This document shows positions 10,894 through 59,300 of a stretch of DNA of 64,000 nt, piece by piece. The notes below the pieces were generated by a model that saw only the letters and a list, made by a program, of their open reading frames with translations, did not search any database and was not told the origin of the DNA. The DNA is from Rhodanobacteraceae bacterium (GTDB lineage: Bacteria; Pseudomonadota; Gammaproteobacteria; Xanthomonadales; Rhodanobacteraceae), in assembly GCA_035688305.1 (NCBI GenBank), contig DASSNC010000111.1, forward strand, positions 573 to 64,572. Direction: 5' to 3'. Each line of letters starts with the position of its first letter. Position 1 is the stretch's first letter. The position numbers and the translations under genes are program-made.

Positions 10894-10900
10894 TCGACGC

Positions 10901-11524
10901 ATGAGCAAGAAACGCCGGCAAAAAACGCGTTCGGGCGAGGTCGCCGATGCGACTGGCGCCGCCGAGCACGAGGTTGCCGAATTCGCGCAGCCCGAGGGGG
11001 CGTTTGCGCTGCTGGCCGACTATGAACAGCGCAGCCTTGAGCACGATCCCGGTGTGCCGGAGCAGATCGAAGCGCCCGGCCTGTGGCGCGCGATCGGCTT
11101 TCGCGTGGGTGAGCGCCACTTCGTATGCGGGATCGACGAGATTACGGAAATCCTGATGGTGCCGCCGCCGGTCACCAGCATTCCCGCAACGCGCCCGTGG
11201 TTGCTCGGCGTCGCGAATGTGCGCGGCAACCTGATCGCGCTGGTGGACCTGAAGCAATTCCTGTTCGGGCAGCGCGTGCATGTCACTGGACGCACGCGGG
11301 TACTTGTGGTGCGCCAGAGCGGCGGCAACGTCGGACTGCTGGTGGACGAGCTGCTTGGGCAACGCAACCTCACCGACGCCGACCGTGCCGGGGCCGAGGG
11401 CGAAGCCGATCCCGGTCTCGCGCGTTTCGTCACCGAGAACGTGACGACTGCACAGGCAAGGCTGGGACGATTCAGTATGGTGGAGTTGACGCGCGCGCCG
11501 GAATTCCAGCACGCGGGACTCTAG
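10901..11524 (+). CDS. pilI: CheW-like coupling protein PilI
   Basis: The ATG at 10901 gives MSKKRRQ... CheW domain (PWLLGVANVRGNLIALVDL). Position between pilH and pilJ. Confidence 0.85.
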   Translation: MSKKRRQKTRSGEVADATGAAEHEVAEFAQPEGAFALLADYEQRSLEHDPGVPEQIEAPGLWRAIGFRVGERHFVCGIDEITEILMVPPPVTSIPATRPWLLGVANVRGNLIALVDLKQFLFGQRVHVTGRTRVLVVRQSGGNVGLLVDELLGQRNLTDADRAGAEGEADPGLARFVTENVTTAQARLGRFSMVELTRAPEFQHAGL

Positions 11525-11683
11525 TTTTGCGATCATCCCCGATCGCGGTTGCGTTGGGTGTTTTCGAGTATTGGAGGGGTTGCACACGATGAACACCAGA
11601 ACGGCCCTGGGTGGCCTGACTTTCAACGACAACCGCTCCGAATCAACGGTTCAAACGACAGACTTGGCAATGAGGTGGCAATC

Positions 11684-39713: not shown

Positions 39714-41291
39714 TCAGGGTGCCGAGTGGCTTTCGCCTTGGGTGAAGCTCAGGATGCCCTTGCGATCGAGCCACCACAGCACCAGCGCGACCAGCAAGGC
39801 AAAGATCGTGCAACCGATGCCCGCAACGCCGAGCCAGTTGTACAGCCGGGTGTAGATCGGCATCATCTGGACCGGATCGGTGATGGTGGCCGGCACGCTG
39901 GCCAGGGTCGCGACCAGCCCGCCGAGGTATTGCGCGACACCCGAAGCGACGAAGTACGCCCCCATCATGAACCCGCCCATGCGTGCCGGCACGTAGCGGG
40001 CCACGAACGCGAGGCCGAGGCCAGAGGTCAACAGTTCGCCGATCGAGCCGAATCCGTAGCCCCAAACCATGACCCACTGGCTGGTCTTGCCGGGTTCGGT
40101 GGTGAAATGCCCGGCCGCGCCGTAGATGAAGAATCCGATCGCCACCGCGGCAAAGCCGAGCGCAAATTTGCTGGCGATGGACAGATCCTTGCCGCGTTTG
40201 GCAGCGCGGGTATAGATGACGGCAAGGATCGGACTGAGCGCGAAGATCCAGAGTGGATTCAGCGCCTGGAACTGCGCCGGCGACCAATCGAATATGTGCA
40301 GGCCAAACAGCCGGAAGGCGGGGTCGACATCGCGCAGCGCGAACAGGTTCAGCGACGTCGACATCTGCTGGTAGAAGATGAAGAAGAACACCGTTTCGAT
40401 GACCAGGATCAGCGCGATGATGATGCCCGCGCGCTCGGTGCGGTGGCACGAGGCGATCAACCACGCGAAGATCGCCAGCACGCAAGCGCCGGCGACCAGC
40501 ACGAAATATTGCGCGACCGTGCGATCCTTCAGGATGTAGGCCGAGATGAATACCACCGCTACGCCGCCGGCGATGACTGTCAGCAGCTTCCAGAACTTCA
40601 TCGGATGGTGGTCCGGCCCGGAACCGATGGCGCTCAAGGTGTGGCGCATCACCATGTAGTTGCCGAGGCCGACCAGCAGGCCCACGCAGCACACCGCGAA
40701 CGCGATGTGCCAGCCGAGGCCGTCGCCAAACAGGTTGCGGGCGTTGTCGCCCAGCAGCCAGGTCAGCTGGCCGTTGAACGGCGCGTTGAAGTAATCCTTG
40801 ATTTTCGGCGTCGCCAGCATCGAAAAGGTCGAGCCGATGTTCACCGCCATGTAGTAAATGGTGAAGGCGGCGTCGATCTTGGTGTCATCGCCTTCGTAGA
40901 TCTTGCGCACGAGGTTGCCGGCGTTGGCCTTGAACAGGCCGTTGCCGACCACGATCACGCCCAGGGCAAAGAACAGGAAGTTCGAGCTGTGCGCCGGCAC
41001 CACCATCAGTGCATAGCCGATCGCCAGCACGACGGCGCCCAGCAGCATGGTGTGGCGGGTGCCAAAGAATTTGTCGCCCACCCAGCCGCCGATTGCCGGC
41101 GCGACGTAGATCAGTGCCGCCGCCGCCCCCCAGGTCAGGTTGGCCGGCGTATCCTGGAAGCCCAGCCGCTCAACCATGTAGTAAATGATCAGCGCCTGCA
41201 TGCCGTAGTAGCCGAAGCGTTCCCACATCTCGATCAGGAATACGGTCGAGAACGAGCGGGTCTTGGATACCGTGGGCATGCTTGCGTTCAT
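39714..41291 (-). CDS. POT/PTR2-family di-/tripeptide:proton symporter
   Basis: 525 aa with the signature FLIEMWERFGYYGMQALIIYYM and multiple TM segments. Confidence 0.9.
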   Translation of the reverse strand: MNASMPTVSKTRSFSTVFLIEMWERFGYYGMQALIIYYMVERLGFQDTPANLTWGAAAALIYVAPAIGGWVGDKFFGTRHTMLLGAVVLAIGYALMVVPAHSSNFLFFALGVIVVGNGLFKANAGNLVRKIYEGDDTKIDAAFTIYYMAVNIGSTFSMLATPKIKDYFNAPFNGQLTWLLGDNARNLFGDGLGWHIAFAVCCVGLLVGLGNYMVMRHTLSAIGSGPDHHPMKFWKLLTVIAGGVAVVFISAYILKDRTVAQYFVLVAGACVLAIFAWLIASCHRTERAGIIIALILVIETVFFFIFYQQMSTSLNLFALRDVDPAFRLFGLHIFDWSPAQFQALNPLWIFALSPILAVIYTRAAKRGKDLSIASKFALGFAAVAIGFFIYGAAGHFTTEPGKTSQWVMVWGYGFGSIGELLTSGLGLAFVARYVPARMGGFMMGAYFVASGVAQYLGGLVATLASVPATITDPVQMMPIYTRLYNWLGVAGIGCTIFALLVALVLWWLDRKGILSFTQGESHSAP

Positions 41292-41393
41292 GGGCGTACG
41301 GGGGTGTTTGTGGCCGAGGATCGGTCAAGACTACCCGAACACAGGCTGAATGTGGCGGGGGCGGGGAACGGGGAACAGGGGACACGGGCAGTT

Positions 41394-41655
41394 TGTAGGT
41401 TGGGCTGAGCGCTTCTTGCGAAGCCCAACGCGTTCACGCGTGAAACCATTGGGCAGGCGATCGCGCGTACATGCGGGTAGCGAGCCTGATGGCTCCCCGT
41501 CACTGGCTGTCACGCTTTTCCGCGTCTGTAGGTTGGGCTGAGCGCTTTTTGCGAAGCCCAACGCGTTCACACGTGAAACCATTGGGCAGGCGATCGCGCG
41601 TACATGCGGGTAGCGAGCCTGATGGCTCCCCGTCACTGGCTGTTATGCTTTCCCG
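41394..41655. repeat. Two tandem units of about 133 bp, same REP family as the 30874-31622 array
   Basis: The sequence tgtaggttgggctgagcgcttc/tttgcgaagcccaacgcgttcac...gggcaggcgatcgcgcgtacatgcgggtagcgagcctgatggctccccgtcactggctgt is repeated, starting at 41394 and again at 41527. Confidence 0.88.
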
Positions 41656-41679
41656 AGTTCCGAATCCCGAGTCCCGCCC

Positions 41680-42237
41680 ATGCAGCTCTACCTCGACCTC
41701 CTGCGCGACGTGCTCGAGAACGGCGCCCGCAAGGACGACCGCACCGGCACCGGAACGCTATCTGTGTTCGGGCGGCAAATCCGCATGGACCTTGCCGCCG
41801 GCTTCCCGCTGCTCACCACCAAGAAACTGCACCTGAAGTCCATCGTGCACGAGTTGCTGTGGTTCCTGCGCGGCGACACCAACATCGCGTACCTGAAGGA
41901 ACACGGCGTCAGCATCTGGAACGAATGGGCCGACGCCAGCGGCGACCTCGGCCCCGTGTACGGCAGGCAGTGGCGGGCCTGGCCGACGCCCGACGGACGC
42001 AGCATCGACCAGATTTCGCGGGTGGTCGAACAGATCAGGCAGCGCCCCGATTCGCGCCGCATGCTGGTCAGCGCCTGGAACGTCGGCGAGCTGGACCAGA
42101 TGGCCCTGATGCCCTGCCACGCCTTGTTCCAGTTCTACGTCGCGAATGGGAAATTGTCGTGCCAGCTGTACCAACGCTCGGCGGATATCTTTCTTGGCGT
42201 GCCGTTCTTTTCAGGCATAGCAATTCTGAAGGCCTAG
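41680..42237 (+). pseudogene. thyA: Native thymidylate synthase, truncated after about 176 codons by the island insertion
   Basis: It reads as canonical ThyA ([15 protein letters not shown]...[16 protein letters not shown]) up to 42207. Nine unrelated codons (FSGIAILKA) and a TAG stop follow. The roughly 88 C-terminal residues expected from established ThyA sequences are absent, and base composition drops at the same point. Confidence 0.85.
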
Positions 42238-42340
42238 GTACTCGTTTCCCTGTAGGCCATATCGCTATTGTCCATGATCCAGGGCGAGCGTGTTGCGCCT
42301 CAGGCCTATGTCAGTTATACCGGCCAACGAAATTGGGAGT

Positions 42341-43243
42341 ATGAGCGTGCGTCATCCGGAACATCAGTATCTTGATTTGCTTGCGCAGGTTCTGAACCAT
42401 GGCGACGAACGCCTCGACCGGACCGGCGTTGGCACTCGCTCGATCTTTGGTGCCATGGTTCGCTTCGACTTATCTGATGGAACTGCTCCCATCCTTACGA
42501 CCAAACGCGTCTACTGGAAGACCGCCGTGAAGGAGATGCTCTGGTTCCTGACGGGTGGGACGAATATAAAGCCGCTGCTTCGCGAAAAGGTGCGAATCTG
42601 GACTGATTGGCCTTTGGACAAATTTCGCCGAACTACCGGGCAGAATATTTCACAAGAAGAGTTTGAGCAACGAATTTTAGACGACGATGACTTCGCCGCT
42701 CAATGGGGTGATCTCGGGCCGGTGTACGGCAAGCAGTGGCGTCGGTGGCTGGGATCAGACGGCCGAGAACATGATCAAATTGCAAATTTAATACTTGCGT
42801 TACGCGAAAAACCAACAAGCCGGCGCATGCTGTTTCACGGCTGGAATGTTGCTGAGCTCGACAAAATGGCGCTCCCTCCTTGTCACATGGTTTATCAATA
42901 TCATGTGACATCTACGGGTCGCCTTAACTGTTTGTTATTTCAGAGATCGGTCGACTTGCTGCTGGGAGCCGCTTTCAATTATGTCGGTGCAACAGCATTG
43001 CAACTAATGCTTGCGCAGCAAGCTGGTCTTAATCCAGGAGAGTTGGTTTGGGTTGGTGGTGACGTTCATTTGTATCTTAATCATCTCGATCAAGCGCGTG
43101 AGCAGCTCTCACGTGAGCCCCGCCCGTTCCCAAAGATCAGGCTCACGCGTCATGCGTCGAGCATCGACGACTATAGGATCGACGACTTCAAAGTCGATGA
43201 CTACTTGCCGCACCCGCCGATTAAGGCTGATGTCGCGGTTTAG
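42341..43243 (+). CDS. thyA: Island-borne complete thymidylate synthase (long type with an inserted small domain)
   Basis: ATG at 42341 preceded by GGGAG. The 300-aa product starts MSVRHPEHQYLDLLAQVLNHGDERLDRTGVGTRSIFG. Motifs include [36 protein letters not shown] and HLYLNH. The C-terminus PHPPIKADVAV is intact. Confidence 0.9.
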   Translation: MSVRHPEHQYLDLLAQVLNHGDERLDRTGVGTRSIFGAMVRFDLSDGTAPILTTKRVYWKTAVKEMLWFLTGGTNIKPLLREKVRIWTDWPLDKFRRTTGQNISQEEFEQRILDDDDFAAQWGDLGPVYGKQWRRWLGSDGREHDQIANLILALREKPTSRRMLFHGWNVAELDKMALPPCHMVYQYHVTSTGRLNCLLFQRSVDLLLGAAFNYVGATALQLMLAQQAGLNPGELVWVGGDVHLYLNHLDQAREQLSREPRPFPKIRLTRHASSIDDYRIDDFKVDDYLPHPPIKADVAV

Positions 43244-43298
43244 ATCTGGTTGTGATGGAGGGGCACACTCTCGCAGCGATCGGTGCCCACGGGGTACG

Positions 43299-45920
43299 TT
43301 GAGTGAGCACAGGCTGCGTTCTCTACTCGATCACGATTGTAAAGACGGACGAATCCTGGCCGATCGTGGCGGCAAAATAAGCCGACGCCACTACGCAGGT
43401 CTACTCGGCTGTACTCACAGTGCCCTGGCGAGGTTCAAGGCTGTGTTCGCGGAGTACGAGCAGCGACTCGGTATAGTGACGGGTCCGATGCAACACTTCT
43501 CTGAGATGAGAAAATGGCTCACTAAGTCATACGAGTCACGAGAGCTAGGGATTCGCGATAACAAGTTGGACCGAGTTGCATTCATGATGCACTTTGGTCT
43601 GCGTGGTGGGACTTTTATGAGACGCCACCCACCAATTCGGAAGTTGTTCGAGGAGTTTGATGCTCGCGCGAAACGTGAAAGCTATCTTCCGCTCGAGAGA
43701 TATAAGGAACTCGAACGAGTAGTGGCCATACTTGCCGCTGGGCCTGTCCTCAACAAAGACCGAATGACCATTAATCAGGTCGAGCTCGCGAAAGCAGCCA
43801 AGGTTCCTAGGGCCAGACTCGGCAGCAGGCCTTTTGCAGATGTAGTTGCGGCAAGCCAAGCGACAATCTCGGCTGAAGTCGCTGCAAGTAGAATTGATCC
43901 ATATGTTCACGGCCGCGTTTTCCCGTTTAGTGACTTAATAGCACCTTGGTCAGAGCTATTTCTCGAGCGTGTTGGGATTCGATTCAAACATATAGCGGTG
44001 GGCCTATCGCCATCAACGGTTAAAGGCCCTTATCTCCAGCTTGTTCATATGCTTGCCTGGATCGGCAGAAGTGAGAATCCGCACTGTCGAACAGTTGTTG
44101 CCGAAGCCAATAAATTTGGCCGAGTGCACTCAGTCGATGAATGGGAGGAGGCGTTATTTGTCTACCGTGATCGACTGGTTGCAACGATTGCCGATGGATC
44201 AGCGACGGAAAGTTCCGTTGACGGTGCGATTTCTGCACTGCGTATCGTGCTCAACGCTCTGTCTTCGGCGCAGGTCGTGCCACCTGTTGCGATAACCTTA
44301 CCAGGCATTAAGCACGTCAGGCGTCGAAGCGGCCACCTGAGGAGCGTTGCGGAGGCGAGCCTCACTGACGCGGGGCAAGAAGCCGATTACGTTGCATTCG
44401 CACGAGATCGCTTCCTCGATGCGTGCAAGGGTTCGGGCACCGACATGGGGATGGGCGACACGGACGACTTCATCAACGGGTTAACCGTTGAGATTAGCGT
44501 CTCTCATGATTTGTCTAGCGATCCTGTTGAGGCGATTCGCCTTGTGCTGGAGCGGCGCCTCCGTGCTCTTCACAGCCATGCAGCGGCGATCGTTGATAGT
44601 GCTGTGAAGGCCAGACAGCGAGGTCACGAACTGCTCTTGCGCTCTCAAATCGACGGGGCGGCATTCGAAGCCGGCTACCTTGCGTCTACTGGCAATCCGT
44701 ACAAATTAAGGCAACTTGTCCGAGAGTTTTTCCCAAATCCGGCTGATTCCACAAAAGCCAAGACTGAACAAGGCGTTGCGAATCTGCTAGCGCTGATCCA
44801 ACAGCGGTGTGGGGGAGTCCCACCGGTGGGCAACAAAAACAATAGTCTTGGTTACGGGCAGTTCTTTGCCAAACGCTATCTCGCCTATGGTGGACTAGCA
44901 ACTATCGGTAGATTGCTGAATCCGGATTCGGATACTGTTGGCGCAGTCCTTACTCTGTATCTCATCGAAAGCGGGGCGAACGTAAGCGTAGGTCGTACGC
45001 TCGATCGGGAATGCATGGAAGCCAGTGACCTAAGCAAATATTGCCGCATCACCGGTTACAAGGCCCGAGCTAAGGGAAAACCCATCATAGTTGACTTGCC
45101 AGAACGCTCGCCGGCTGTGGAGGCAATTAAATGGTTCTTATCGAGCAGCGAAGAACTGAAAGCCGCTGCGGGACGTGACAGCGATCGACTATTTCTAATG
45201 CGGATTGGCGGTCGCGTACAACTGATGACACCGCATTGGTACAACAATTGGTTCAAATCATTCGCGGGGTCAGTGCCAGAGCTGCAGGGCGTAAAACTGC
45301 TCCCGAGCATGATTCGGCCATCTGTACTCCTACACGCTTCGCTCGGAAACGAAGGCCGACTCGCGGTGGGAATGGCTATCGGCCAACACGGACTCGCCGT
45401 GACTCAAGGCTATCAGCAGAAGTGGCCCACCAGGCTGTTGTATGACGAAAATATCCGGCGCTTTCAAAAAGCATTCGAAACCCTGGTCCTTTCCGGTGCG
45501 GAGGATGTGGCGTTGAAACTTGGCATTACGGTGGAACAGTTCACTGCACGGTTGGGAGAGTTGCGCGCCACTGGGCTCGGCACCTTCTGTAGGGATCAGC
45601 GGGGGCGCTCCAGTGAGCCCGGTAAAAAATGCTCCACGCTCGACTGCTGGAACGACTGCCCGCATATGCTTATTGTGGCTGAGGTAGAGGCAATCGCTGC
45701 ACTTCAACTCTGGCAAAGGTCGCTACGGGCTGCGCGCCCAGATTGGGAACGCGACCAGCCTGAGCGTTGGGATCGGGTGTGGCTTCCTTGGCTCTGCCTC
45801 ACAGATGTCGTCGAGGAAAAGATGGTGCGCGGTCCTATGATCAAGATTTGGAATGCGGCAATGCGCCGAGCATCTGAGATCTCCGCGAAATCCGACTACG
45901 TACCGCCTCACCCTTGGTAA
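43299..45920 (+). CDS. Large tyrosine-recombinase-like protein, first of the trio (Tn554 TnpA-like position)
   Basis: ORF 43011-45920. Its upstream part overlaps thyA in another frame, so the start is uncertain; a TTG at 43299 is the first plausible start after the thyA stop. C-terminal catalytic-domain-like motifs: SGANVSVGRTLD (Arg I), ITGYKARAKGK, LLPSMIRPSVLLHA (x-x-Arg), GQHGLAVTQGY (His...Tyr). Confidence 0.65.
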   Translation: MSEHRLRSLLDHDCKDGRILADRGGKISRRHYAGLLGCTHSALARFKAVFAEYEQRLGIVTGPMQHFSEMRKWLTKSYESRELGIRDNKLDRVAFMMHFGLRGGTFMRRHPPIRKLFEEFDARAKRESYLPLERYKELERVVAILAAGPVLNKDRMTINQVELAKAAKVPRARLGSRPFADVVAASQATISAEVAASRIDPYVHGRVFPFSDLIAPWSELFLERVGIRFKHIAVGLSPSTVKGPYLQLVHMLAWIGRSENPHCRTVVAEANKFGRVHSVDEWEEALFVYRDRLVATIADGSATESSVDGAISALRIVLNALSSAQVVPPVAITLPGIKHVRRRSGHLRSVAEASLTDAGQEADYVAFARDRFLDACKGSGTDMGMGDTDDFINGLTVEISVSHDLSSDPVEAIRLVLERRLRALHSHAAAIVDSAVKARQRGHELLLRSQIDGAAFEAGYLASTGNPYKLRQLVREFFPNPADSTKAKTEQGVANLLALIQQRCGGVPPVGNKNNSLGYGQFFAKRYLAYGGLATIGRLLNPDSDTVGAVLTLYLIESGANVSVGRTLDRECMEASDLSKYCRITGYKARAKGKPIIVDLPERSPAVEAIKWFLSSSEELKAAAGRDSDRLFLMRIGGRVQLMTPHWYNNWFKSFAGSVPELQGVKLLPSMIRPSVLLHASLGNEGRLAVGMAIGQHGLAVTQGYQQKWPTRLLYDENIRRFQKAFETLVLSGAEDVALKLGITVEQFTARLGELRATGLGTFCRDQRGRSSEPGKKCSTLDCWNDCPHMLIVAEVEAIAALQLWQRSLRAARPDWERDQPERWDRVWLPWLCLTDVVEEKMVRGPMIKIWNAAMRRASEISAKSDYVPPHPW

Positions 45921-48574: not shown

Positions 48575-51500
48575 TTATGGAGAGTCTGACGGCCTGATCG
48601 CGAATCGCACCTTCTCTTCATGGCTTGCATTCTTGGATCGACGTGCCGTCGCAGCAGTAAATTCTCGGACCCCAATAAGCGCCTCCAGTTGAGTCCGGCC
48701 GGTTGCGTTCAAAACGATGGCCGCCCCTTCTCCCCAGAGGCAATCGCCGTGCGTTTGGCCATCAGGCGCTCCGTCTCGCCAGCAATAGGCAGTTGCTACG
48801 ATCGCCCCGGTGGTGTCTGCCCACGTAGAGGAGCCGTCATCTGCAATTCGCCAGTTGAGGCTCGCGGTAAGGGAGGGATCGAGAGTCAGCTCGAAGTTAG
48901 GAAGCGACCCCAAACCCTCACGTTCGACGCGGCAAACAGGGATCCACGCTCTGGTTTCAGGTCCGCCGTTAAGTCCCGCGGGCGCTGAAACGGGTAGGCC
49001 ATCATACAGAAAGCGAGGATCGATACGAGCAGGAAGTCTCGTTCCGAATAAGCGCATCCGTGTCCATTCATAGGTAGTGAAAGCGTCTCTTCCGTGAAAA
49101 TGAGACACCCCCGCGAGGATTGTGTCTGGGCCGAGATCCACATCACTCAAGTCCTCTTCCACCGCCGCCAGCCAGTCTTCCTCGTCCACCCTGAATCCGG
49201 GCATCGTCGGTCGGTGGACAAATTCGGGCCTAATATCCATCTTAGTCCGCAGTGGGACTTGGGACTCGCCGAGGGCCCAAACCAATTGATCGATCTCGTC
49301 GGCACTGATTCGGCCTGCCCGTTCTAGTTCTCCGGCGATCCGTCGTAGGGCCCTTAGCGCCCCGACCACATGGGGGTATCGAAACGTCAATCGGAAGCCT
49401 AGTTTTGACATCTCCCGCTCTAATCCATCGAGACCTGGCTGCCCGAACGCCTCTAATCCACCCCAACTTTCGATCAGATCTTGGACTCTGCGCCGAATGT
49501 GACCCGTCGAAACACCAGCGGCCTCGGCAAGCCGGCTGACGAGATGATCGACGGGAGCGCTCCAAGCCGCGACATCCGATACAGCGGGCGGCCCGAAAGG
49601 TCGTCGGCGAAGAGAGTTAGCCCTAACGACCGGTTGTAGGGGCGGGAGAGCCAAACTGTAGAAAACTGGGGTCGGAGCGACTTGGCGCCCGACATCCAAT
49701 CCCCACTTCATGGTCAATGCTTTCGCAAGCGAACGCACTACGATGTCGTCGTGATCAACAAGCGCAACAACGCGGGTCTCCAGCACCCCCCGGAGTTTCG
49801 TTCTACCCCACGCGCGGGCGAGACGAAGGCCCTCAATCACCTCTTCCGCGGCACCCGAAAGCATTGATTCGATCAGTGTCGTTAGCGCATCTTCATCGAT
49901 GTCTGCCAAGGCGGAAAGGCCTCGTTCCGCGTGCCATCTGAGTTCGGGAATGGGAAGCGCTAAAAGTTGGTGAAATAGCTTCGCAGTTAAAGCTGAGTCT
50001 GTATCAACATCGATCATCTCGATGTCTTTACCAAGTCGGTAGTCGCGTGTGCAAGGCAATTGCTCCTCCACTGACTCCCACATTGCCTGCCAATTCGGGG
50101 CAGTCGTGAGCACCGGCCAGATGTCATCGATATCCCACAGAAGCGAGTTAGTCATCTCTTCTCCAGCTGCCAGCGCCGATGCGAAGTTCGCGTAAGCATC
50201 TGCGTGGACAGCGGCCCCATCCAACTTCAATCGGGCCTGGAAGTAACGTCGACGACCACCGCCCATCGTCCAGGACCAGCTTGCACTACGATCCTCAGCA
50301 ATCACATAACCGTTGACCAGGCGAGCAGCCACATCGTTGCGGCCAACGGCCAATGCTCTATCCACCAAGCTGAATCGAGCGCGGTTATCCTGGCTTATGC
50401 GGGCATGTCGATCGAACAAAGCAAGCGCTACATCAATATCGGCCGTTGGAATCAGCCTGATGAATGCCTTCGTCGCGTCATAGTCAACGGATCCGTCTGT
50501 CGCCACTTCGTCGAGCCGAGCCGTGAGGCTCGTTATGTCGGCAACATCGTCATAACGTGTTGGAGAGTCTCCGCCGCTTCTGCGCAGCGTCGGCTCGCCG
50601 GCGAGCCTTGCCATGCCCGCGCGGATGCCTCCTGAAGGCACTCCACGCTTCTCAACCTCTAGCGCCAGTGTGTCGAGAAGCGAATGCCTGACGTCCATCT
50701 GCGAATGGATCTCGATATTCATTTGCAGAATATTGGCTATAACATCGACTTCCGCAGGTGCCGCGACGCCCATGGCTTCGCGAATGAACCACCCTTCTGA
50801 CTCACTGCGGTAATACGCTGCCCTATGGAAGGGCAGGCAGAGCGAAACCCAGGTCTCGACACAAGCCCTGAGGCGCCGTGGATCTCGCTTGACCAAGCCG
50901 ATCATCAAGGCATCCACGACGTCCGGTAATTCAATCAGATCGGCGTTGTTGAGAGCCAGTGCCGTGCTGATGCCAAGCTTCGCGTTATCCAACATCGCCT
51001 CTACGATGATCTCGTGAGCGATTCGGCCAGCTGCGTCTCTACCTTCTGTTAGCGTCATGCCGACGGCTTGCCGAGCAAGCGTGCGTACACGCGCGAATCG
51101 CCCGACCGGATCGATACGATTAGCCTCGCGCAGGAGTGCTATCCAGAAGGCATACTGCGGATCCTTTTTCGCTTGAACGGCATAACCGAGTGTTTCAGCT
51201 CTGCCTTCCGCTAACAACGCTCGTGCACGATCTTTGCGTCCGATTTGCGCGAATGCAACAGCCAAGCGAGCTGTACTCGAAAGAAACTCGCTCGGAGTAT
51301 TCTCGTCCCGACGTTCCAGCAATCCGCTTAAGCGCCGCTCCGCATCATCGACATTCCCACCTAACTGTGCCATCGTGCAGGCGATCACACTCTCGAGGGG
51401 GACGAAGCGATTTCGTTCTGTCGGGCTATCGGCAAGGACTTGATCGATCTCATTTACTGCCATTGCGAACTCATTCAGTCCCAATCTAGCTGCCGACTCC

Positions 51501-54500
51501 AAAAGGGACCGCACCACCTCCGATGCCGCGGAAGTCAGCTGGCTGGTAGCGAAGAACTCGCCTGCCTCTTGGGCACGCGTTCGGCACACGTAACGCATGA
51601 ACCGCGCGCATTCTTGCGCAATTTCACCGTGAGCTATCGATGCTGCAGCATTTCGACTACGCGCAGCTAGCTGCCCTGCGAGCTCGCTGAACTGTTGCAA
51701 CGGTCTCAGCTGAGGCTTGCCCGATTGCGGAGCGGTGGCAACCGACAAGCTGAGCAAGGTCGCCAGTTCTGAGTATTCCATCACTGCTCGCGTAACGTGC
51801 TTGACCGACTCGTAGTTGATGGAATCATCAAGCTCGGAAATCGCGGGTGGCGCAAGCCCTTGGAAAAGAGATCGCGCATTAGTCAGCAGATTTCTATGGG
51901 CAATCTTAAGGGCAACCTTTCTCCTCAGCCAATCTGAGGTTTCCGAAAGCGCCCGTACATCTGTCGTGGCCTGCTCAATTAATGCTGTCGCATCTGCTGT
52001 CCTCCCGCGGGTCAATAGATGTGCAGCCGCCCAAAGGCGCAAGAACACGTGTGCACCGGGCTCCAAGCGGAAATCGGCGATTATTGTGCCTACATCAACT
52101 GCCGAATCGAATGCCAAGGCTGCCATTGCGGCACGTTTTCGTAGCAGATTCCCGAGGTCGTTCGGGTCCTGAAATGGATGATTGTCACGCCCGGCGACCT
52201 CGACGATACGGTCAATCCCGGACAAGATCTCAGTCGGCGTCCTAAAATGGATTGCCTGCTCAACCCAATTCTCAAGCTCGCTACGTTGGGAAACCGGACC
52301 TCCGGTGGACCCGTCGTCACTTCCCAGGTCGTGCAATGGTTCGATGCGCTCGAAGAGAGATCTTGCTCGATCCAAGTTTCCCTCGGCCAACCACGCAGCC
52401 ACCACGGCGTATCCGTTACCGCCTACCTCCTCAATGAATGCCTCCGCATCATCAACGTCGCCAGTTGCAATCAAGGCCTCGACCGTATCATCCGACTGCT
52501 CAATGGCCGAAAATCGACGAGTCAACTCGTCCGACGAAAAGATCAAACGGAAGGCTGCTGTTGGATCCCGCACCTCCTTCAAAGAATTGAAGGCCAGCCT
52601 GATATCGTCCTGAATGCTACCCACCGATCGGCCGGCTAGAAACTGCTCGCGAAAGAGCGCCGGAGTCGCGAGTACTAGCGCCTCTTGATGCGCTCCAGAG
52701 CGCAACAGATAGCGCAATTGCAGATACCGTTGAGGCGAATCATCGCCTGCGCTTACCGCGATTTCCGCCAATCGTCGGTATAGCTGTGTTGAGTATTCAG
52801 GATCTGGCACTCCATAACGCAATCTGGGTATGCGGGCCACAAACAGCCGAAAACTGTTGTGAAAGACCGACCAGCCACGCCCATTACTGATGAGGAGATG
52901 GCGAACGTTGCGCCAGGCGCGATCTATGGCGTCGATGGAGTAGAACTGTTCGAGCTGGCCCAGATCCAATGGAGCCTCTGATCTAGCGATGAGCCCGAGA
53001 ATGTCCATGATCTCTTGGTCATCGTCCAACCCGCGCAATGCGGATGTGTACAACGCCTCGACGTCTCCCGAGTATTCGAACCCTCCATCCAGAATACTCG
53101 CCCGTTCCACCTCGTCCTTGGCAGCGAGCAGCGCTTCGATCAGGTAGTGAGTCGCAAGCGGATGACCTTGCGCCAACTCGCGTAAGCGCGTCCTCGAGAT
53201 GGTCTCTGGAAGCCCCATAGCATCCGCCATTGCGGAAATTGCACCCTGAGACAGAGGGGCGATTTCCACATGGCGTCTTGGCAAACCCGATTGGTCTCGA
53301 ACAGAAGGTGGAATGCCGGGCAGATCTACGCGCTGGGTCCCCAGAAGGAACACAACGCCATCGGGAATCGAGGCCGGAAGTGGCAATTCCGAAAGAAATG
53401 ACCGCTCGGGGCGCTCCTCTCGAGGTACATGATCCAATCCATCGACGACAATAAGCGTTCGAGTACCAGTTTCTTGGAACCGCGTACCCGCTGCGCTAAG
53501 CAATGCTTCGAGTTCCTCCCGCCTTTCTTGAGGTGACTCCCGCCGGAACCGAAGACCGCGCAGACCGGTTCGTCGTAGCCCTACGATCAGGTCCTCTTGA
53601 AAGTCGGCTGCCTCTGCGCGGCCTATCCCTTGGGCAGCTCCAGGCACGAAAGCCAGGTACCTGACCACAACAAGCCGAGGCTCCGATTCGAATGCAATCT
53701 GCAGCAAAGTGGACTTGCCGGAACCAGGAGGCCCGACTAATGACACATATCCCGATGTGCTTCCATTCAATGCAAGCCTAAGTTGCTCCTCCGTAGCCGG
53801 ATTGCGCTGTACGGCAGCGCCAACGGGAAACTGGTGGCGATGCAGGGTCTCGACATCGAGCCAGCCCATTTCTCGCAGGAATGCTTCTCTGGTCCATCGA
53901 TCCTGCTCGGGAACGCGAGCAACAAGAGTTGGCAAGCGCTGCGCTATCCGATCTACTTGCGGCTGTGAGAGATCGGTTATGCCAAATCGAGTGGCGAAAT
54001 CTGGATCTCCGCCATGGACGAGTTCGAAATGGCGCAGAAACTCCTCGAATCCAGCATCGTCGAGGCTCGACTTCCCAAGTAGATGTTCGACAAATGAGCC
54101 CCAACGAGATACTTTCCACTCCGCCAACGTCCATGAAGGGTGTGCCCTCCAGTCTTCGACGAACTGTCGCGTCGTTCCACCATCATCAGTTAGCCGATCA
54201 TTTTCCGACGGAATATCCGATACAACGACGCGAATTCTTACCGTCTGACCCGGGCAACTTTCCCGTAGCTGCTGCCAAGCGAGAACTAATCCAGATAGCA
54301 AACCGTCGCTCCCGGTCAAGAGCGAACTGATCCGAAACGCGGAGGGGTTCCGTGCAGTCTTGAATTGGTGTCCCACCACTTCGTCGTCATACCCCAACAC
54401 GACGTCGTCGGCGATTCCGGCACATCGATCTGCGAGGCCCACCCAGCGCAGGTCTCCGCCGTCCAACCCGCGGTAGATGGCCGCGGCCGCAGCTTCGTAC

Positions 54501-54616
54501 TGGCGGGTGTATCCGCGCTGTGCCCGTCTCTCACCCTCTCCCGGAGCAGTTGTTCGGGTAGCAGAAGCTTCAGGTGAGGGTTCGGGATCTAGGGCAGGGG
54601 AAGCGGGGACACTCAT
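48575..54616 (-). CDS. Giant STAND-type NTPase with an N-terminal Cap4/DUF4297-like PD-(D/E)xK nuclease domain and long helical-repeat C-terminus (Avs/NLR-like)
   Basis: 2013 aa. N-terminal RGYTRQYE...GIADDVVLGYDDEVVGHQFK (nt 54359-54430). Walker A GPPGSGKS (nt 53711-53734), Walker B LIVVDGLDH, and a GHPLATHYL winged-helix-type motif. About 1400 aa of Leu/Ala-rich helical repeats and a distinct C-terminal ~250 aa follow. Confidence 0.8.
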   Translation of the reverse strand: MSVPASPALDPEPSPEASATRTTAPGEGERRAQRGYTRQYEAAAAAIYRGLDGGDLRWVGLADRCAGIADDVVLGYDDEVVGHQFKTARNPSAFRISSLLTGSDGLLSGLVLAWQQLRESCPGQTVRIRVVVSDIPSENDRLTDDGGTTRQFVEDWRAHPSWTLAEWKVSRWGSFVEHLLGKSSLDDAGFEEFLRHFELVHGGDPDFATRFGITDLSQPQVDRIAQRLPTLVARVPEQDRWTREAFLREMGWLDVETLHRHQFPVGAAVQRNPATEEQLRLALNGSTSGYVSLVGPPGSGKSTLLQIAFESEPRLVVVRYLAFVPGAAQGIGRAEAADFQEDLIVGLRRTGLRGLRFRRESPQERREELEALLSAAGTRFQETGTRTLIVVDGLDHVPREERPERSFLSELPLPASIPDGVVFLLGTQRVDLPGIPPSVRDQSGLPRRHVEIAPLSQGAISAMADAMGLPETISRTRLRELAQGHPLATHYLIEALLAAKDEVERASILDGGFEYSGDVEALYTSALRGLDDDQEIMDILGLIARSEAPLDLGQLEQFYSIDAIDRAWRNVRHLLISNGRGWSVFHNSFRLFVARIPRLRYGVPDPEYSTQLYRRLAEIAVSAGDDSPQRYLQLRYLLRSGAHQEALVLATPALFREQFLAGRSVGSIQDDIRLAFNSLKEVRDPTAAFRLIFSSDELTRRFSAIEQSDDTVEALIATGDVDDAEAFIEEVGGNGYAVVAAWLAEGNLDRARSLFERIEPLHDLGSDDGSTGGPVSQRSELENWVEQAIHFRTPTEILSGIDRIVEVAGRDNHPFQDPNDLGNLLRKRAAMAALAFDSAVDVGTIIADFRLEPGAHVFLRLWAAAHLLTRGRTADATALIEQATTDVRALSETSDWLRRKVALKIAHRNLLTNARSLFQGLAPPAISELDDSINYESVKHVTRAVMEYSELATLLSLSVATAPQSGKPQLRPLQQFSELAGQLAARSRNAAASIAHGEIAQECARFMRYVCRTRAQEAGEFFATSQLTSAASEVVRSLLESAARLGLNEFAMAVNEIDQVLADSPTERNRFVPLESVIACTMAQLGGNVDDAERRLSGLLERRDENTPSEFLSSTARLAVAFAQIGRKDRARALLAEGRAETLGYAVQAKKDPQYAFWIALLREANRIDPVGRFARVRTLARQAVGMTLTEGRDAAGRIAHEIIVEAMLDNAKLGISTALALNNADLIELPDVVDALMIGLVKRDPRRLRACVETWVSLCLPFHRAAYYRSESEGWFIREAMGVAAPAEVDVIANILQMNIEIHSQMDVRHSLLDTLALEVEKRGVPSGGIRAGMARLAGEPTLRRSGGDSPTRYDDVADITSLTARLDEVATDGSVDYDATKAFIRLIPTADIDVALALFDRHARISQDNRARFSLVDRALAVGRNDVAARLVNGYVIAEDRSASWSWTMGGGRRRYFQARLKLDGAAVHADAYANFASALAAGEEMTNSLLWDIDDIWPVLTTAPNWQAMWESVEEQLPCTRDYRLGKDIEMIDVDTDSALTAKLFHQLLALPIPELRWHAERGLSALADIDEDALTTLIESMLSGAAEEVIEGLRLARAWGRTKLRGVLETRVVALVDHDDIVVRSLAKALTMKWGLDVGRQVAPTPVFYSLALPPLQPVVRANSLRRRPFGPPAVSDVAAWSAPVDHLVSRLAEAAGVSTGHIRRRVQDLIESWGGLEAFGQPGLDGLEREMSKLGFRLTFRYPHVVGALRALRRIAGELERAGRISADEIDQLVWALGESQVPLRTKMDIRPEFVHRPTMPGFRVDEEDWLAAVEEDLSDVDLGPDTILAGVSHFHGRDAFTTYEWTRMRLFGTRLPARIDPRFLYDGLPVSAPAGLNGGPETRAWIPVCRVEREGLGSLPNFELTLDPSLTASLNWRIADDGSSTWADTTGAIVATAYCWRDGAPDGQTHGDCLWGEGAAIVLNATGRTQLEALIGVREFTAATARRSKNASHEEKVRFAIRPSDSP

Positions 54617-54787: not shown

Positions 54788-56305
54788 TTACGTCTCGGAA
54801 TTCGAAACTGCCGCCGCGTCGGTATCTTGGGGCCATTCAAGGCAGCTCCGGATGTTAAATCCGCCCGTTGAGCCGTACTTCGTCACATCGGCGGGAAGAT
54901 GATCCGTCAGATATCGGTGAACACGGCGAACAATGGCTGCATCAAAGCTCAGGATGCCCAGGGGGATCGGGAATCCGCGGCCATCGTTAATTGGCGCGTG
55001 AACAACCACGGCGGCAACTCTGCGCGGAATCAGGAGGACTTCGAGCGAGCTTGGAATCGCCCCAGTATTTGGCCTGCAGAAGATTGTGGGAGCGGCTTTA
55101 GTCAGCCGCCGCTGAGGTTTTCCTTCATCAATCAAGATGGGGCTGCGCTCCATCTTTCTGCCAGTGGCGTCTACATCAACGCCTTCCTTCGTGAGCGTTT
55201 CGAGAAGCTCCAGGAAGGATCGCGAAGCACCCCATGCTGACTGCTTCGGCACGACCCACAAGAAAACGTCATCATTGCTAAGCGCAGGTTCGTTTGCGTA
55301 GCCGATAGCCGTTGTAATTCGTACGATGTTCTCGGGTTGATACAGCGCTCCAGCGATGCCAACGGTGGGCCTATTGCTGCGCAACTCACCGGCGCGACCG
55401 GCCAATTCCTTGAAGTAACGAAGCGATGCAAAACCAGAGCGATTCACATACTCCTTTAGGTACTCGGGCGCGATATTCGTCAGGACGTCGAGCGCATTGA
55501 CATCCTCCGGCGTCTTTACGGTTCGAAGATTCTCCAGAAACTCCGCCACACCATGGACGACTCGGTCTCGATCGGCAAGTTCGTGCCCTGTTCTCCACTT
55601 CTCCAGAAGCGCTTCAGGTTCGCTAGGCCTCCGAACTGAGGCCATGGCAACAAACGGGACGACTGCTGAGAATCGGTCGCCGGCGACTACGTCATCCACT
55701 GAGTACAAGGACCTCTTTAGTTGATCCACCGCCTCCCTGTCCCTGCGACTTGAAATCTCTCCATAGAATCTGCGAAAGGACTCAGGAACGTGCCTCGAAG
55801 CGTTGGCGACCAGGTCCGGATCTCGAATCGCAAGCTCAGGTAGCGATCTTTCAAATTCGGATTGGTGCTCCCGATCGCAGGGCGCAAGAGAGAGTAAATC
55901 GAATCCAACTCTTTCTGTTTTTTTAGCGACGTCGTAGATCTGAGGCTTGTCGCTCGCCTTAAAGAGGGCGTTGCCGGCATCCGTCAGCCAAATGCGTCCT
56001 TCGGAGCGAGATATATAGGCTCGGGCTTCGGCATCACGTATGACGTACGCCATTTCATTGGCGTTGAAGCCAAAGAAGCTTGCAGCAGTTTCCTCTGGCA
56101 TGCCGTCGGCAGAATGCAATAGTCGCAGCAAGAACTCGGTTGTTAGCGAAACCTCGCCAACTTCGGCCACTTTGTGCCGCACCACGAACTGTCTGGCCGG
56201 AAGTTGCACGTCGAAAATTCCGACGGGAACCCGAACGTCGATCGATTCAGGTTCGGCTCCAATTGCTGCCTTGCGCAATGAAAGCACGCGACGAGCCCCG
56301 CTCAT
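54788..56305 (-). CDS. Hypothetical 505-aa protein, translationally coupled to the NERD-kinase-helicase gene
   Basis: The ATG at 56305 overlaps the upstream gene's TGA (ATGA at 56302-56305). The long ORF has composition matching its neighbours. I see no nucleotide-binding, HxK (PLD) or other catalytic motif. Confidence 0.7.
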   Translation of the reverse strand: MSGARRVLSLRKAAIGAEPESIDVRVPVGIFDVQLPARQFVVRHKVAEVGEVSLTTEFLLRLLHSADGMPEETAASFFGFNANEMAYVIRDAEARAYISRSEGRIWLTDAGNALFKASDKPQIYDVAKKTERVGFDLLSLAPCDREHQSEFERSLPELAIRDPDLVANASRHVPESFRRFYGEISSRRDREAVDQLKRSLYSVDDVVAGDRFSAVVPFVAMASVRRPSEPEALLEKWRTGHELADRDRVVHGVAEFLENLRTVKTPEDVNALDVLTNIAPEYLKEYVNRSGFASLRYFKELAGRAGELRSNRPTVGIAGALYQPENIVRITTAIGYANEPALSNDDVFLWVVPKQSAWGASRSFLELLETLTKEGVDVDATGRKMERSPILIDEGKPQRRLTKAAPTIFCRPNTGAIPSSLEVLLIPRRVAAVVVHAPINDGRGFPIPLGILSFDAAIVRRVHRYLTDHLPADVTKYGSTGGFNIRSCLEWPQDTDAAAVSNSET

Positions 56306-59300
56306 ACGTCACCTTCCTTCCGCTTGACCCTGCCAGTGACCTTCTCTTTTCCCTTCCTCGACGATTTTGGTGAAGCCAGAAGCTCGGAGGCGTCCAGGCG
56401 CATGGCGTCACCGCCTTTGACCTCTTCGTCGAAGCCGGCCGAAACAGCACCAAGCGGAGACCCTTCTCTCCATGCTGCCTTTGCGCCCACGATGACAAGA
56501 CGATCCATCGCTCGACTCAGGGCGACATTGATTCGATTCTTCTTCGCCAGGAAGCCGGGCTGTATTGTAGGCGCCCCGCGGTCCTTGATCCCATCTGCGT
56601 TGTTTCGAACCAGCGACAGAATCACAATGAGGTTTTCTTTGCCTTGGTAGCTGTCGATAGTGTCAACCTTGATCGCGCGCCTGAATACCTCTGGAAGGCT
56701 CTCGGATTGGAGTTTCCGTCTCACGAGTTCAAGCTGCGCCGCATACGCGCAGATCACGCCGATCGCCTCCACGCCATCCGGCAGAGTCTTAATCCAGCTC
56801 AAGAATGGCTCGTGTTCGGACCAGCGCTTAAGCAGCCAGACGATCACATCCGCTTCGGCGGCATTGTGTAAACTCCCACGCCTTATACTTCCGGCCCTTT
56901 GGTAAGCGCTCGCACCCATGGCGTCCGTACTCACCCACACGAGTGGAACCGCCAGTTCAGGCGGCAGGGCCCCCGGAGGAATTTCTGGCTTGGTCCGTTC
57001 GTGTTGCAGAGCTCGGTCGTAGAACGAGTTGGAGACCAACCTGCCGATCGGCGGAAGCATCCGATACTGCTTCTTTAACGTATGCCCCCCATGTTTGCCG
57101 TATGTGGATTCGAACGCGCGCTCGAAATCGCTCTTAACCACTTCGGCTGCCGAAATCTTCAACTCAAGCGCGAGAGCATCCACGACATCTGGAGAATGCT
57201 GGGGTTCGAGTTGCGCGTGGTCGCCTACTAGCACGACCCATTTCCCCGCTTGTATTGGAACCGCCAGCTCGCTCGGAGTGCAGCGCGCCGCCTCATCCAC
57301 GATCACGAGATCAAAGGTTGTCTTCGTCAGCCCCAAGGAAGAACGGCCAAGGCCTACGCATGTACCCGAGACTACTTGCCGGGTGCCGGCTAGAAAAGTC
57401 TCGTAGCTCCTCTGCCATGTAGAGACAGTTCCGACGATGTCCCGCCCGAGCTCTGCGATGTTTCGCAGCCGCTCAACCCTATGAGCAGTTTCATTCGAAA
57501 GCCTTGAGAAGAAGAGGGAGGTGACCATGTTCTCGACCTCGCTCGATTCAACTTCTGACAGGTCGCAATCAATACCACGATCTAGAAGGCGCTGCTGCAC
57601 AGTTGCCTTCAATGAGTTGACTCGGACTGTTTCGCTGTTTGCCTCGACCAACTCGGAAACGCGGGCCAGTATCGGCCGGATTGTGTCCTCGAAGAACATC
57701 ACGGTCTCGCATTCGGTTTCACTCAGTCCAAGATATCTCGCAACGACACCCATCCTTAATTCGCGGGTCGCGACGAAGTCATCCTTATAAGCTCGTTCAA
57801 CGGCAGCGGCGTGGTATGGCCTCAACGACTCGGAAATCTGGCCCTCAGCGCCAACCCGAATCATGCTTAGCGAGTCGCGGTCCTTTCCGAACAAGTTCAA
57901 TACGGCCTCGGCCGCGTTGTTGACAGCTTCATGCGATTGACTGGCAACTAGCACGTTCCTCGCGAGCCCATGAGTCAGCGCGTAGTGCACCAGTGCGCCA
58001 ATGAAGCGCGTCTTTCCTGTCCCTGGGGGGCCCTGCAACAAGCCCAACGGCCGATGCGCGACGATTCCTTTGAATGCGGCCACCTGCGTCGGATTGAGCT
58101 TATAGCGCTGCACCAGCAGGTCTTCTTCCACCTCAATGGTGATGTTGTAGGGCCGCTTGCCTGTGGCAGGGTAAAAAGCGTCGAGCAACTCAGGAGCAAC
58201 GGAGTTTTTGGTGAGAATTCGAGTTGTTGCCTCCTCGCGGCGCTGCCAGCTCGTGTTCTCCATACGACTTTGGAACCGGAGGCGGTCGCCATCTCGAACG
58301 ATGGGGCCTCGAGAGCCGTCGACGTAACCGTGAATGGCCAAAGCGTCTGCAGATGTCTTCTGAACGTCGAGGGCCCCGATCTTGCGCCAGATGCCGTTAT
58401 TGTCGAGTCGCTCAACTGCGACCACGTCCTTTCGGTCGAAATCCAGGTTGCCGACCGACAGCTGAATCGGTAATACGTGAAGACGCGCTTGCGAGCGATA
58501 TGTACTGTCGCCTAAGGCAAGAACCTCCGTCTTGAGCTCGCCCTCGATCCGAATCGAACGCTCCCACAACAGTGGCACATCCAAACTACCCCTTGCTCCA
58601 CCTTCGCCGGCTGCTTGCTCTCGCTCTACAAGCTCGTCCTCCTTTGCTTCGATGCTGGCGACTTGAGACAGTTCCTGCTCGCTCTCTTCCTTTATCTGAG
58701 GTGGTGGCGCGCCCAGTGCAGCCGCAACCTCAGGGAGTTGGAGGATCGACGAAATAGCCCCCAATTGACTCAATCCGCTTTCAATCACGAGATTCGCGCG
58801 GAATCCGCAGATCTTCTGCTTCGCGAGCCAAGATGCCTGCGCTTGTTCAAGCTTGTTGCGCCACGCCTTCGAGGGCGCTCCGGTAGCGCCCAATTCGACC
58901 GAAAGCTCCTCGACTGCGCCAACGATTTTGAGTCGCCTGTCGCTTTTCACAATCCAAAACTGCCCTTCGTCAGGAAGCATCGGGCCAGATTCAGTGCGAG
59001 GAATGGAGATGGTGAAACTCGGCAGATCACTTTCAGTAGGCGGTTTCGCAGCGACTTCGAGAGCCTCGCGTAGCGGTAACAATGTACCGTTCGCTGGAGG
59101 TCCCATGCGACATTCTTCGATGGCCCTTTCGATTCGTCGAGCGACTTCCGCATTGATGTCTAGCCTCGCCAGAAGTTCCTCTGCGATTTTTGTCACTGCG
59201 TAGCGATCGCGCTCGAATCGCCCACCCGAAGCGGGTGAATAGGCTCGAGATCGACGAGATCCGTCTTGGGCGGATGAGTAGTCGACCATGTCAATGAGAA

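Follow-up and report, generated by a model that had tools for sequence, protein, structure and literature searches.

The question raised by the locus described here is why a bacterium should carry, in close succession, a thymidylate synthase gene (thyA) which breaks off within its own coding sequence and a second, complete thyA of a different type, followed by recombinase genes. The locus lies in a stretch of 64,000 nucleotides (nt) of contig DASSNC010000111.1 (positions 573 to 64,572, forward strand; assembly GCA_035688305.1, Rhodanobacteraceae bacterium), hereafter called the window, whose own numbering is used throughout. A first-pass annotation, made from the DNA letters and a list of their open reading frames (ORFs), had proposed an island integrated inside the essential thyA gene. 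According to the reading favoured here, to which we assign a probability of roughly 0.85, the region from position 42208 to beyond 64000 belongs to an integrative element of at least 21.8 kb, a member of a widespread family which inserts site-specifically and in a single orientation, after the Phe176 codon of thyA and before that for Asn177, and compensates for the damage with a thyA gene of its own.

The host-type gene is a canonical thyA up to nt 42207, and not beyond. By tblastn, 41680-42207 corresponds to residues 1-176 of the E. coli enzyme, at 71.6% identity, and the Pfam Thymidylat_synt profile is matched only at positions 2-178 out of 266, that is, by less than a full-length domain. 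After F176 the host ORF (41680-42237) continues with 9 unrelated codons and ends at the stop in 42235-42237; this junk tail (42208-42237) is supplied by the left end of the island. The breakpoint, the 9 codons and the stop had been described at first reading, and so had a fall in guanine plus cytosine (GC) content at the very breakpoint, measured here as a step from 0.64 to 0.54 at 42 kb. Residues N177, H207 and Y209 are absent from the fragment; they are part of the C-terminal third of ThyA, which is needed for catalysis by established enzymology. In the whole 64-kb window, tblastn with the E. coli protein did not reveal any thyA 3' fragment, and an exact-protein look-up of the truncated ThyA returned no match.

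The second copy was claimed to be complete, of another type and endowed with a long insertion, and the library searches agree: Pfam PF00303 is matched along its whole length (profile positions 1-266, E = 1.2e-103), NCBIfam equivalog models for thymidylate synthase are matched as well, and the protein, 47.6% identical to E. coli ThyA, has some 35 additional residues inserted in its small-domain region. Eight island ThyAs, that of the window included, keep every one of the 16 catalytic or substrate-binding residues checked, as expected of a ThyA with the catalytic Cys146 and the residues binding dUMP and folate. The gene had been placed 104 nt past the stop of the broken copy, with a Shine-Dalgarno sequence of its own; the complete copy stands, while its start is better assigned to the GTG at 42347, 7 nt after GGGAG, than to 42341, and related loci call a product of 298 amino acids (aa). 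The very same protein is encoded by five other metagenome contigs (L004-L008), and orthologues with 74-84% identity occupy the same position in loci L009-L015 and L055. The island ThyA is predicted to supply thymidylate (dTMP).

The source is a metagenome-assembled genome, and several assemblies break near the junction, which might speak for a chimeric contig; alternatively, a local, non-mobile duplication of thyA, followed by decay of one copy, could be imagined. The same junction is however found, identical base for base, in independent samples and assemblers (Logan, JGI, ENA, NCBI) and in isolate genomes, such as that of Tardiphaga robiniae LMG 26467, and no fewer than six assemblies made independently from other samples (L004-L008, L025) contain it: an assembly artefact, named beforehand as a circumstance under which the proposal would fall, is thus ruled against. 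As for a duplication, the proteins encoded by the two copies share only 46% identity, and the copies therefore do not derive from one. Both accounts appear to us extremely improbable.

The interpretation of the locus as an interrupted gene is directly supported by its uninterrupted form. Island-free relatives had been suggested as a check, and one such relative, a JGI metagenome contig (L028), contains the PTR2 transporter gene, an intact thyA of 264 aa, rather than a short one, and a folA gene overlapping the thyA stop; it also encodes an efflux adaptor protein identical to that of the window. Complete elements, with both junctions, were found in L011 (11,175 bp) and L055 (11,493 bp). Removal of the L011 element together with one 6-mer produces an uninterrupted 264-aa ThyA, 66% identical to the E. 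coli enzyme, and in L055 the two thyA halves likewise rejoin in a 264-aa frame upon removal of the element and one 6-mer. A third observation comes from the comparison of the window with L025: identity is 82% in the host flank and about 85% in the thyA 5' fragment, but at least 98% from 42206 onward, with a step at 42206-42208. Taken together, empty site, rejoined frames and identity step bear out the central claim of the first-pass annotation, an island located inside thyA and bringing a heterologous full-length thyA.

The step is not peculiar to one pair of contigs. When left junctions L004-L008 are aligned, several host thyA sequences are seen joined to a near-invariant island, beginning with TTTTCAGGCATAGC, so that at least 4 host backgrounds share a nearly identical island; the recombinase ORFs and the left end of the window are 97-99% identical to copies in other hosts. 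These comparisons show horizontal spread between hosts. More distant relatives were searched by scanning an alignment of the recombinases over one genome per species. The same architecture is found in metagenome-assembled genomes of Parvibaculum and Sphingomonas, in Burkholderiales bacterium PBB3 and in T. robiniae LMG 26467: a host thyA cut at residue 176 is followed by a full island-type thyA (74-84% identity), by two genes labelled in this analysis recA-like and recB-like (the former being unrelated to the RecA protein) and by a small gene. Position and orientation of the insertion are the same in 11 out of 11 left junctions and in about 65 right junctions.

The ends of the element could be defined from both sides. 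The termini are 8-bp inverted repeats, TTTTCCGG...CCGGAAAA (TTTTCMGG...CCGGAAAA), the left end reading TTTTCCGGCATAGC and the right one ...CCGGAAAA; the reverse complement of the left end matches the right end CCGGAAAA of L011, L013, L014 and of 54 distinct metagenome right ends. Right junctions were collected by scanning metagenomes for the right end followed by 6 nt, AAYATYGC, 4 nt and TAYGC, which resulted in 76 loci, against about 4 expected by chance. In about 65 of the 76, the consensus CCATAGCGA...GGTGACCGGAAAA (AcCATAGCGA...GGTGACCGGAAAA) is followed by Pro-Phe codons and by the 3' part of thyA, starting with NIASY: the 3' remnant, which had been predicted to begin N-I-A-S-Y, is thus found as expected at the right junctions of relatives. 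None of these loci overlaps the cargo of the window, and neither CCGGAAAA nor CCTGAAAA occurs as a right end in the window after 42208; the island of the window is therefore larger than 21.8 kb. Internally to the left end, a repeat of the CATAGCG motif may represent a recombinase-binding site (Table 1); in L009, L011, L012 and L015 a related motif, CATAGCGCTATTGTC...TGA, is located 50-90 nt inward of the left end, and ATAGC is found at a fixed distance of 36 nt from the terminus in 35 of the 54 right ends.

The hexamers adjoining the two ends behave differently. On the left, the 6-mer differs between insertions (CCGTTC, CCCTGG, CCCTTC, GCCTAC, CCGTTT and CCGAGG are found), and several versions would encode non-native residues; on the right, native codons for Pro-Phe or Ala-Phe are found without exception, CCGTTC in 36 cases, CCCTTC in 19, others in the rest. 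Both sides carry CCGTTC in L055, GCCTAC and CCGTTC, respectively, are found in L011. The pattern points to a 6-bp staggered exchange, the element carrying along one coupling sequence from its previous site, a behaviour known for Tn554, for strand-biased circularising integrative elements (SEs), for GInts and for Tn916 (PMC10214605, PMC5385486).

A few features of the right end deserve mention. In every case the thyA 3' remnant has a reading frame which stays open across it (L011, 16700-17092, and the right junctions in L029-L104), with a conserved in-frame GTG located 12 nt before the right 6-mer and, at times, a longer island ORF. In the empty site L028, folA either directly adjoins the thyA stop or overlaps it, and in 13 right-junction loci the distance between the two falls between -9 and +36 nt. 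Since the remnant frame is open and folA adjoins the thyA stop, the right end may serve to keep translation running into the remnant, so that the downstream folA stays expressed. In two loci, L037 (2310 and 3106) and L049 (8678 and 9875), two right-junction motifs are found 0.8-1.2 kb apart, each followed by a thyA 3' fragment; they look like the result of successive insertions or accretion.

Table 1. Features of the thyA locus and of the island (window coordinates)
Feature	Position	Strand	Basis or remark
Left flank, probably imported with the island	40950-41679		PTR2 5' end and intergenic region with tandem repeat; identity drop relative to L028
Truncated host-type thyA (residues 1-176)	41680-42207	+	tblastn, Pfam
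6-bp coupling sequence CCGTTC (Pro175-Phe176 codons)	42202-42207	+	Adjoins the left end
Left terminal inverted repeat TTTTCAGGCATAGC	42208-42221	+	Conserved at the breakpoint in 11 loci
Sub-terminal CATAGCG-motif repeat CCATATCGCTATTGTCCATGA	42257-42277	+	Candidate recombinase-binding site
Island thyA, long-type thymidylate synthase, 298-300 aa	42341/42347-43243	+	Pfam, NCBIfam, catalytic residues; first gene of the recombinase operon
recA-like gene, 896 aa	43230-45920	+	Fold of domain model, invariant residues, profile match
recB-like gene, putative large tyrosine recombinase, 684 aa	45925-47979	+	Motifs, weak Pfam match
Small accessory gene, 181 aa	47976-48521	+	ATGA start overlaps recB-like stop; positional counterpart of TnpC, Srap, GinD
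STAND/AAA NTPase, 2013 aa, Avs-like	48575-54616	-	PADLOC Avs1b, 7.2e-16; Pfam AAA_16, AAA_22, NACHT
Mokosh defence pair (MkoB 54788-56305, MkoA 56302-61227)	54788-61227	-	PADLOC MkoB 3.4e-106; MkoA E = 0, 1593 bits
Type I restriction R subunit (HsdR), runs off the window	61423-64000	-	PADLOC REase_I

The replacement thyA is the first of four tightly packed genes, thyA, recA-like, recB-like and the small gene, separated in this order by a 14-nt overlap, a 4-nt gap and an ATGA overlap. The recombinase gene had been placed 56 nt after thyA; its start is most likely at 43230, overlapping the thyA stop by 14 nt, as gene callers report an 896-aa product and conserved residues are found upstream of the earlier start. 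Read-through from the host thyA promoter, also suggested at first reading, would be plausible: island orientation relative to the host thyA is identical in every family member, and, as the four genes overlap or abut and no terminator-like site was found in 41300-43400, their co-transcription from that promoter can be envisaged.

The first of the two recombinase-type proteins proved difficult to classify. The recA-like protein has no sequence match in Pfam, NCBIfam or PDB, and its profile, compared to PDB sequences, likewise found nothing; a profile-profile comparison revealed no relation to the recB-like protein, and a fold search with the whole protein was uninformative, consistent recombinase matches being obtained from a domain model only. 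In this model, covering residues 385-800 (predicted local distance difference test score, pLDDT, 77; predicted template modelling score, pTM, 0.73), the 11 best PDB matches are XerH, Cre and topoisomerase IB. The architecture comprises helix-turn-helix-like repeats at the N-terminus, a tyrosine-recombinase-like fold and a cysteine cluster at the C-terminus; R589, K611, R696, H720 and Y728 are invariant and lie within motifs resembling the recombinase boxes. The model supports a recombinase fold, and the protein may be catalytically active. As many as 411 representatives of clusters at 50% identity (E <= 0.001) make this a large family. In some members (P0292, P0297, P0311 and others) the N-terminus is extended by about 300 aa which repeatedly match that of the recA-like protein, and one has a match to a Fis-type helix-turn-helix; this end of the protein probably consists of DNA-binding repeats in an array. 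The idea that these extensions could be a fused ThyA, or some other replacement enzyme, was rejected, as no such domain is found by Pfam.

In the recB-like protein, 24 homologues show no or hardly any variation at R338, K366, the H-x-x-R motif (450-453), H478 and Y487, and a C-terminal cysteine cluster is also invariant among them; an exact-protein look-up returned no match. The small gene follows recB-like in every family member; it has no match in the family libraries, and, among the modules compared, a relative was detected only in the small gene of L016. Both recombinases are presumably active.

Profile searches place the module close to known multi-recombinase modules of plasmids. The recA-like profile matches (E = 5.7e-10) the second, "hypothetical" gene of a four-gene module of a Mesorhizobium plasmid, composed, in this order, of an integrase, a hypothetical gene, a large integrase and a small TetR-like gene. 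The recB-like profile matches, with values from 4.6e-24 to 2.3e-20, the large integrases of three modules, namely the Mesorhizobium one, a similar one carried by pMOL28 (Cupriavidus metallidurans) and one with two integrases from a P. aeruginosa plasmid. By these matches, the module looks like a set of Tfp/GinC-like, IntB-like and small genes of the SE/GInt type, deprived of the ordinary first integrase, with thyA in its slot. Distant versions are found in L016 (Pyrinomonadaceae, 6764-11579), with all three genes, and in L017 (Devosia, 6882-10993), with the two recombinase genes only and no match to the small gene. Neither thyA nor an obvious replacement gene lies near either of them; the module therefore also serves elements with other targets. 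No tmk fragment or kinase was found near the distant recB-like relatives L016-L024.

Several points weigh against the favoured reading, or at least against its extension to every detail of the present copy. The fold matches of the recA-like model, consistent as they are, are weak, the best E being 0.041 and none reaching 0.001; the protein has no significant sequence match to any recombinase, and model confidence is low in the region around the candidate tyrosine. For the recB-like protein, the match to Pfam Phage_integrase (E = 0.003) lies under the curated cut-off. The right end of the window's own island, and the corresponding thyA 3' remnant, lie outside the window. Mobility, in terms of circular form, excision and integration, is deduced from sequence. 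The island ThyA would be needed for dTMP only in a genome without thyX or another thyA. Finally, the left flank is divergent, which suggests that this copy did not integrate here by itself.

This last point concerns the sequences to the left of the island. Window and empty site L028 are 99-100% identical up to about 40.9 kb, then only 83-86% through the PTR2 5' end, the intergenic region and the thyA 5' fragment; the drop occurs at about 41.0 kb, 1.2 kb left of the island end. The thyA 5' fragment itself, in spite of the 99-100% identity of the flanks, is only about 78-87% identical to the L028 gene, and between PTR2 and thyA a 133-nt unit, absent from L028, is present twice in tandem (41394-41655, 96% identity); it is possibly of the REP or MITE type. 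Because of the position of the drop, it is probable that at least 1.2 kb of donor chromosome entered together with the window copy, through homologous recombination, and that this copy did not come in by its own integration; the truncated thyA would then appear to be of donor origin too.

One may go further, and consider the island of the window a fixed relic, acquired passively with its donor flanks by homologous recombination (through transformation, conjugation or transduction) and no longer able to move by itself. Besides the divergent flank, extending through the thyA 5' fragment, this would fit the lack of visible conjugation or mobilisation genes in the 21.8 kb of island within the window, and the existence of decayed relatives. 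The intact recombinase ORFs and left end, so similar to those in other hosts, argue in the opposite direction. We rate this possibility slightly below even odds; it accounts, in any case, for the arrival of this copy, and not for the nature of the family, and is as such compatible with the integrative element proposed here.

Decay is documented in various forms. Two derivatives are devoid of recombinases: L029 (61-5067), where the long-type thyA and the right end are kept, and L052 (4-6726), which features an E. coli-type thyA and a 1588-aa ORF with a small gene downstream of it, as well as right end and remnant. The large L052 ORF was considered as a possible recA-recB fusion, and rejected: it contains, by eye, Rhs/YD-type repeats and, with the small gene, is read as toxin/immunity cargo. 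In Sphingomonas sp. Leaf412 (L013, 7324-17537) and Oryzibacter oryziterrae (L014, 5900-14573) the 3' remnant is of the long island type; the former has no thyA upstream of the recombinases, the latter has neither the left end nor the host 5' fragment. Either elements can insert into island-type thyA as well, or the two loci have been rearranged.

Within the window, the genes beyond the small one, listed in Table 1, are all related to defence, and the HsdR fragment is 100% identical to a 1048-aa protein (P0172) of the source metagenome-assembled genome; as its gene runs off the window, the island continues past 64000. Cargo differs directly after the small gene among otherwise near-identical copies: the island is therefore a carrier of defence systems. 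Within the hsdR region GC content goes up, from about 0.55 to 0.63, and three Logan contigs stop at 61646-61750, which suggests that the cargo is mosaic.

How such an element may work can be outlined as follows. The stretch in which insertion occurs, ending |NIASY, is the most conserved part of thyA and codes for the active site; the element would recognise this constrained, nearly invariant DNA around Phe176|Asn177 and thus have a broad host range, so that one family can enter Alpha-, Beta- and Gammaproteobacteria. Insertion would destroy the host ThyA by removing its C-terminal third, and for this reason the element would carry a complete thyA to replace it. The thyA-recA-recB-small operon, facing away from the host thyA promoter, would be reached by read-through, and host thyA transcription may drive both the replacement enzyme and the recombinases. 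Recombination on the 8-bp terminal inverted repeats would most likely be performed by the two large tyrosine-recombinase-type proteins and the small protein, through a 6-bp staggered crossover; the element would take one 6-mer along, whether or not this agrees with the target, as is the case for Tn554, SEs, GInts and Tn916. The genes following the small one would all be variable cargo.

Only if the native 6-mer stays behind would thyA be restored upon loss of the element, since otherwise Pro175-Phe176 would be replaced. A wrong 6-mer left in place, or an imprecise deletion, would therefore result in selection for keeping the island. An addiction-like stabilisation by the replacement thyA, already proposed in the first-pass annotation, may be inferred, and fits the decayed relatives, since L029, L052 and L014 lost recombinases or left end, yet kept the replacement thyA.

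Anatomy, exact breakpoint, empty site, rejoining of the thyA frame in relatives and the intact catalytic set of the island ThyA are all observed. A wider proposition is that the three genes represent an undescribed and widespread family of tyrosine-recombinase modules (a Tfp/GinC-like protein which keeps the catalytic residues, an IntB-like and a small one), which uses the thyA core as a near-universal attachment site across proteobacterial classes and pays for it with thyA as the first gene of the operon; we consider the chances of this being correct about evenly balanced.

If the favoured reading holds, an inserted element should be hard to lose without thymine starvation, and its cargo (Mokosh, the Avs-like NTPase, type I restriction) should persist accordingly: the family would provide defence systems with a hard-to-lose platform. 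On the practical side, thyA pseudogenes of truncated form and "extra" copies of the gene, met in genomes and in metagenome bins, become interpretable, and the conserved ends, with the three-gene module, make a compact candidate tool for site-specific integration, with a built-in auxotrophy marker.

At first reading, thyA was not known as an integration hotspot of this kind. Published precedents correct this remark: the tmk island of Pseudomonas putida (PMC10653934) and the Aeromonas elements reported within thyA (PMC10229833). In P. putida KT2440, an island disrupts tmk, and its deoxynucleoside monophosphate (dNMP) kinase, PP_1964, was experimentally found to replace thymidylate kinase (Wirth et al. 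2023, PMC10653934). This is the only experimentally shown case, and was presented as a first; members of that island family have in common a TetR-like gene, two tyrosine recombinases and one unknown protein (PMC10653934).

With thyA interrupted, and a predicted substitute encoded beside the recombinase module, the family described here would belong to the same category of elements replacing essential genes. Both sit in an essential gene of the deoxythymidine triphosphate (dTTP) pathway and carry a heterologous substitute enzyme; in both, the replacement gene lies at the island end, beside two (here putative) tyrosine recombinases and an uncharacterised protein, cargo is variable, several genera are involved and derivatives are found in which only the replacement gene is left. 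They differ in the target, here thyA, and in the substitute, a true ThyA, though of a different type, as opposed to a phage-like dNMP kinase. The module described here is made of three genes, none of them TetR-like according to library searches. The substitute function is known here from sequence only, there by experiment, and the recombinases of the two systems are set side by side by description.

The recombination machinery, in turn, recalls SEs (intA-tfp-intB-srap) and GInts (ginABCD) (PMC10214605, PMC5385486), and the question arises whether the element simply belongs to an already described class, be it GInt, SE or the Aeromonas transposons Tn7360/Tn7361. Common to SEs, GInts and the present family are several tyrosine-recombinase-type proteins and a small accessory protein at one end, the cargo being located past the small gene; specificity for a target; terminal inverted repeats of an imperfect kind; a 6-bp footprint or imperfect flanking repeats; and the lack of transfer genes (PMC10214605, PMC5385486). 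In SEs, the 6-bp footprint goes together with a copy-out circularisation of one strand. As in GInts, insertion is site-specific, the 6-bp flanking repeats are imperfect or perfect, and cargo diverges right after the small gene; moreover, the recB-like profile matches the large integrase, and the recA-like profile the second gene, of such four-gene modules, i.e. their third and second genes.

The core gene set is nonetheless different. Two large recombinase-type genes and one small gene are found, the four-gene operon is absent and there is no intA counterpart: an ordinary-sized first integrase, of about 380 aa, was found neither here nor in relatives, and thyA stands in its position. The recA-like protein keeps the candidate catalytic R589, R696, H720 and Y728, unlike Tfp/GinC, described as lacking the RHRY motif (PMC10214605). 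Hosts are mainly Alpha- and Betaproteobacteria and Rhodanobacteraceae, and, unlike GInts, described as not fully inactivating their targets, insertion occurs in the middle of an essential gene and is compensated. Neither thyA nor thymidylate is mentioned in the SE or GInt papers or their supplements. We hence deem it unlikely that the element, here taken as a member of a separate thyA-specific family, is just an instance of a described class.

The Aeromonas elements are the closest by target. Tn7360, Tn7361a and Tn7361b carry mcr-3 and are reported to be integrated within thyA "with 6-bp DRs", i.e. direct repeats (PMC10229833), like L055, with CCGTTC on both sides; the comparison is by description only, the report containing no word on the position in thyA, on a thyA of their own or on recombinases (PMC10229833), and no Aeromonas protein is found among the named homologues.

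In gene number and order, the module also fits Tn554 of staphylococci, with tnpA, tnpB and tnpC and 6 bp carried from the previous site (PMC10214605, PMC3414803): two tyrosine recombinases, one of them unusually long, and a small protein, with the reservation that the recA-like fold is weakly matched. A single preferred site, one orientation, the carried 6-bp sequence and the absence of a true target duplication are further similarities. Tn554, however, is found in Firmicutes, its att554 lies in the non-essential radC and it brings no replacement gene. In Tn554 and SEs, moreover, the 6 bp from the left of the donor are described as being copied to the right of the new site; in the present family the left side, proximal to the recombinases, is the one with the non-native 6-mer.

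Integration inside a conserved housekeeping gene without loss of function is also known for SXT, in prfC, and for dusA-specific islands. These elements supply only the end of a substitute gene, which results in a hybrid gene; in contrast, the host thyA is left broken here and a complete, separate gene is supplied.

In the literature, no description was found of an element inserting into thyA and carrying its own thyA, and thyA as an insertion site was found once, for the Aeromonas elements. Since precedents exist for the principle as well as for this type of recombination machinery, the family, widespread and apparently unnamed, is not categorically new; next to the tmk islands, it would represent a second, much broader example of a mobile element which breaks an essential gene and substitutes for it.

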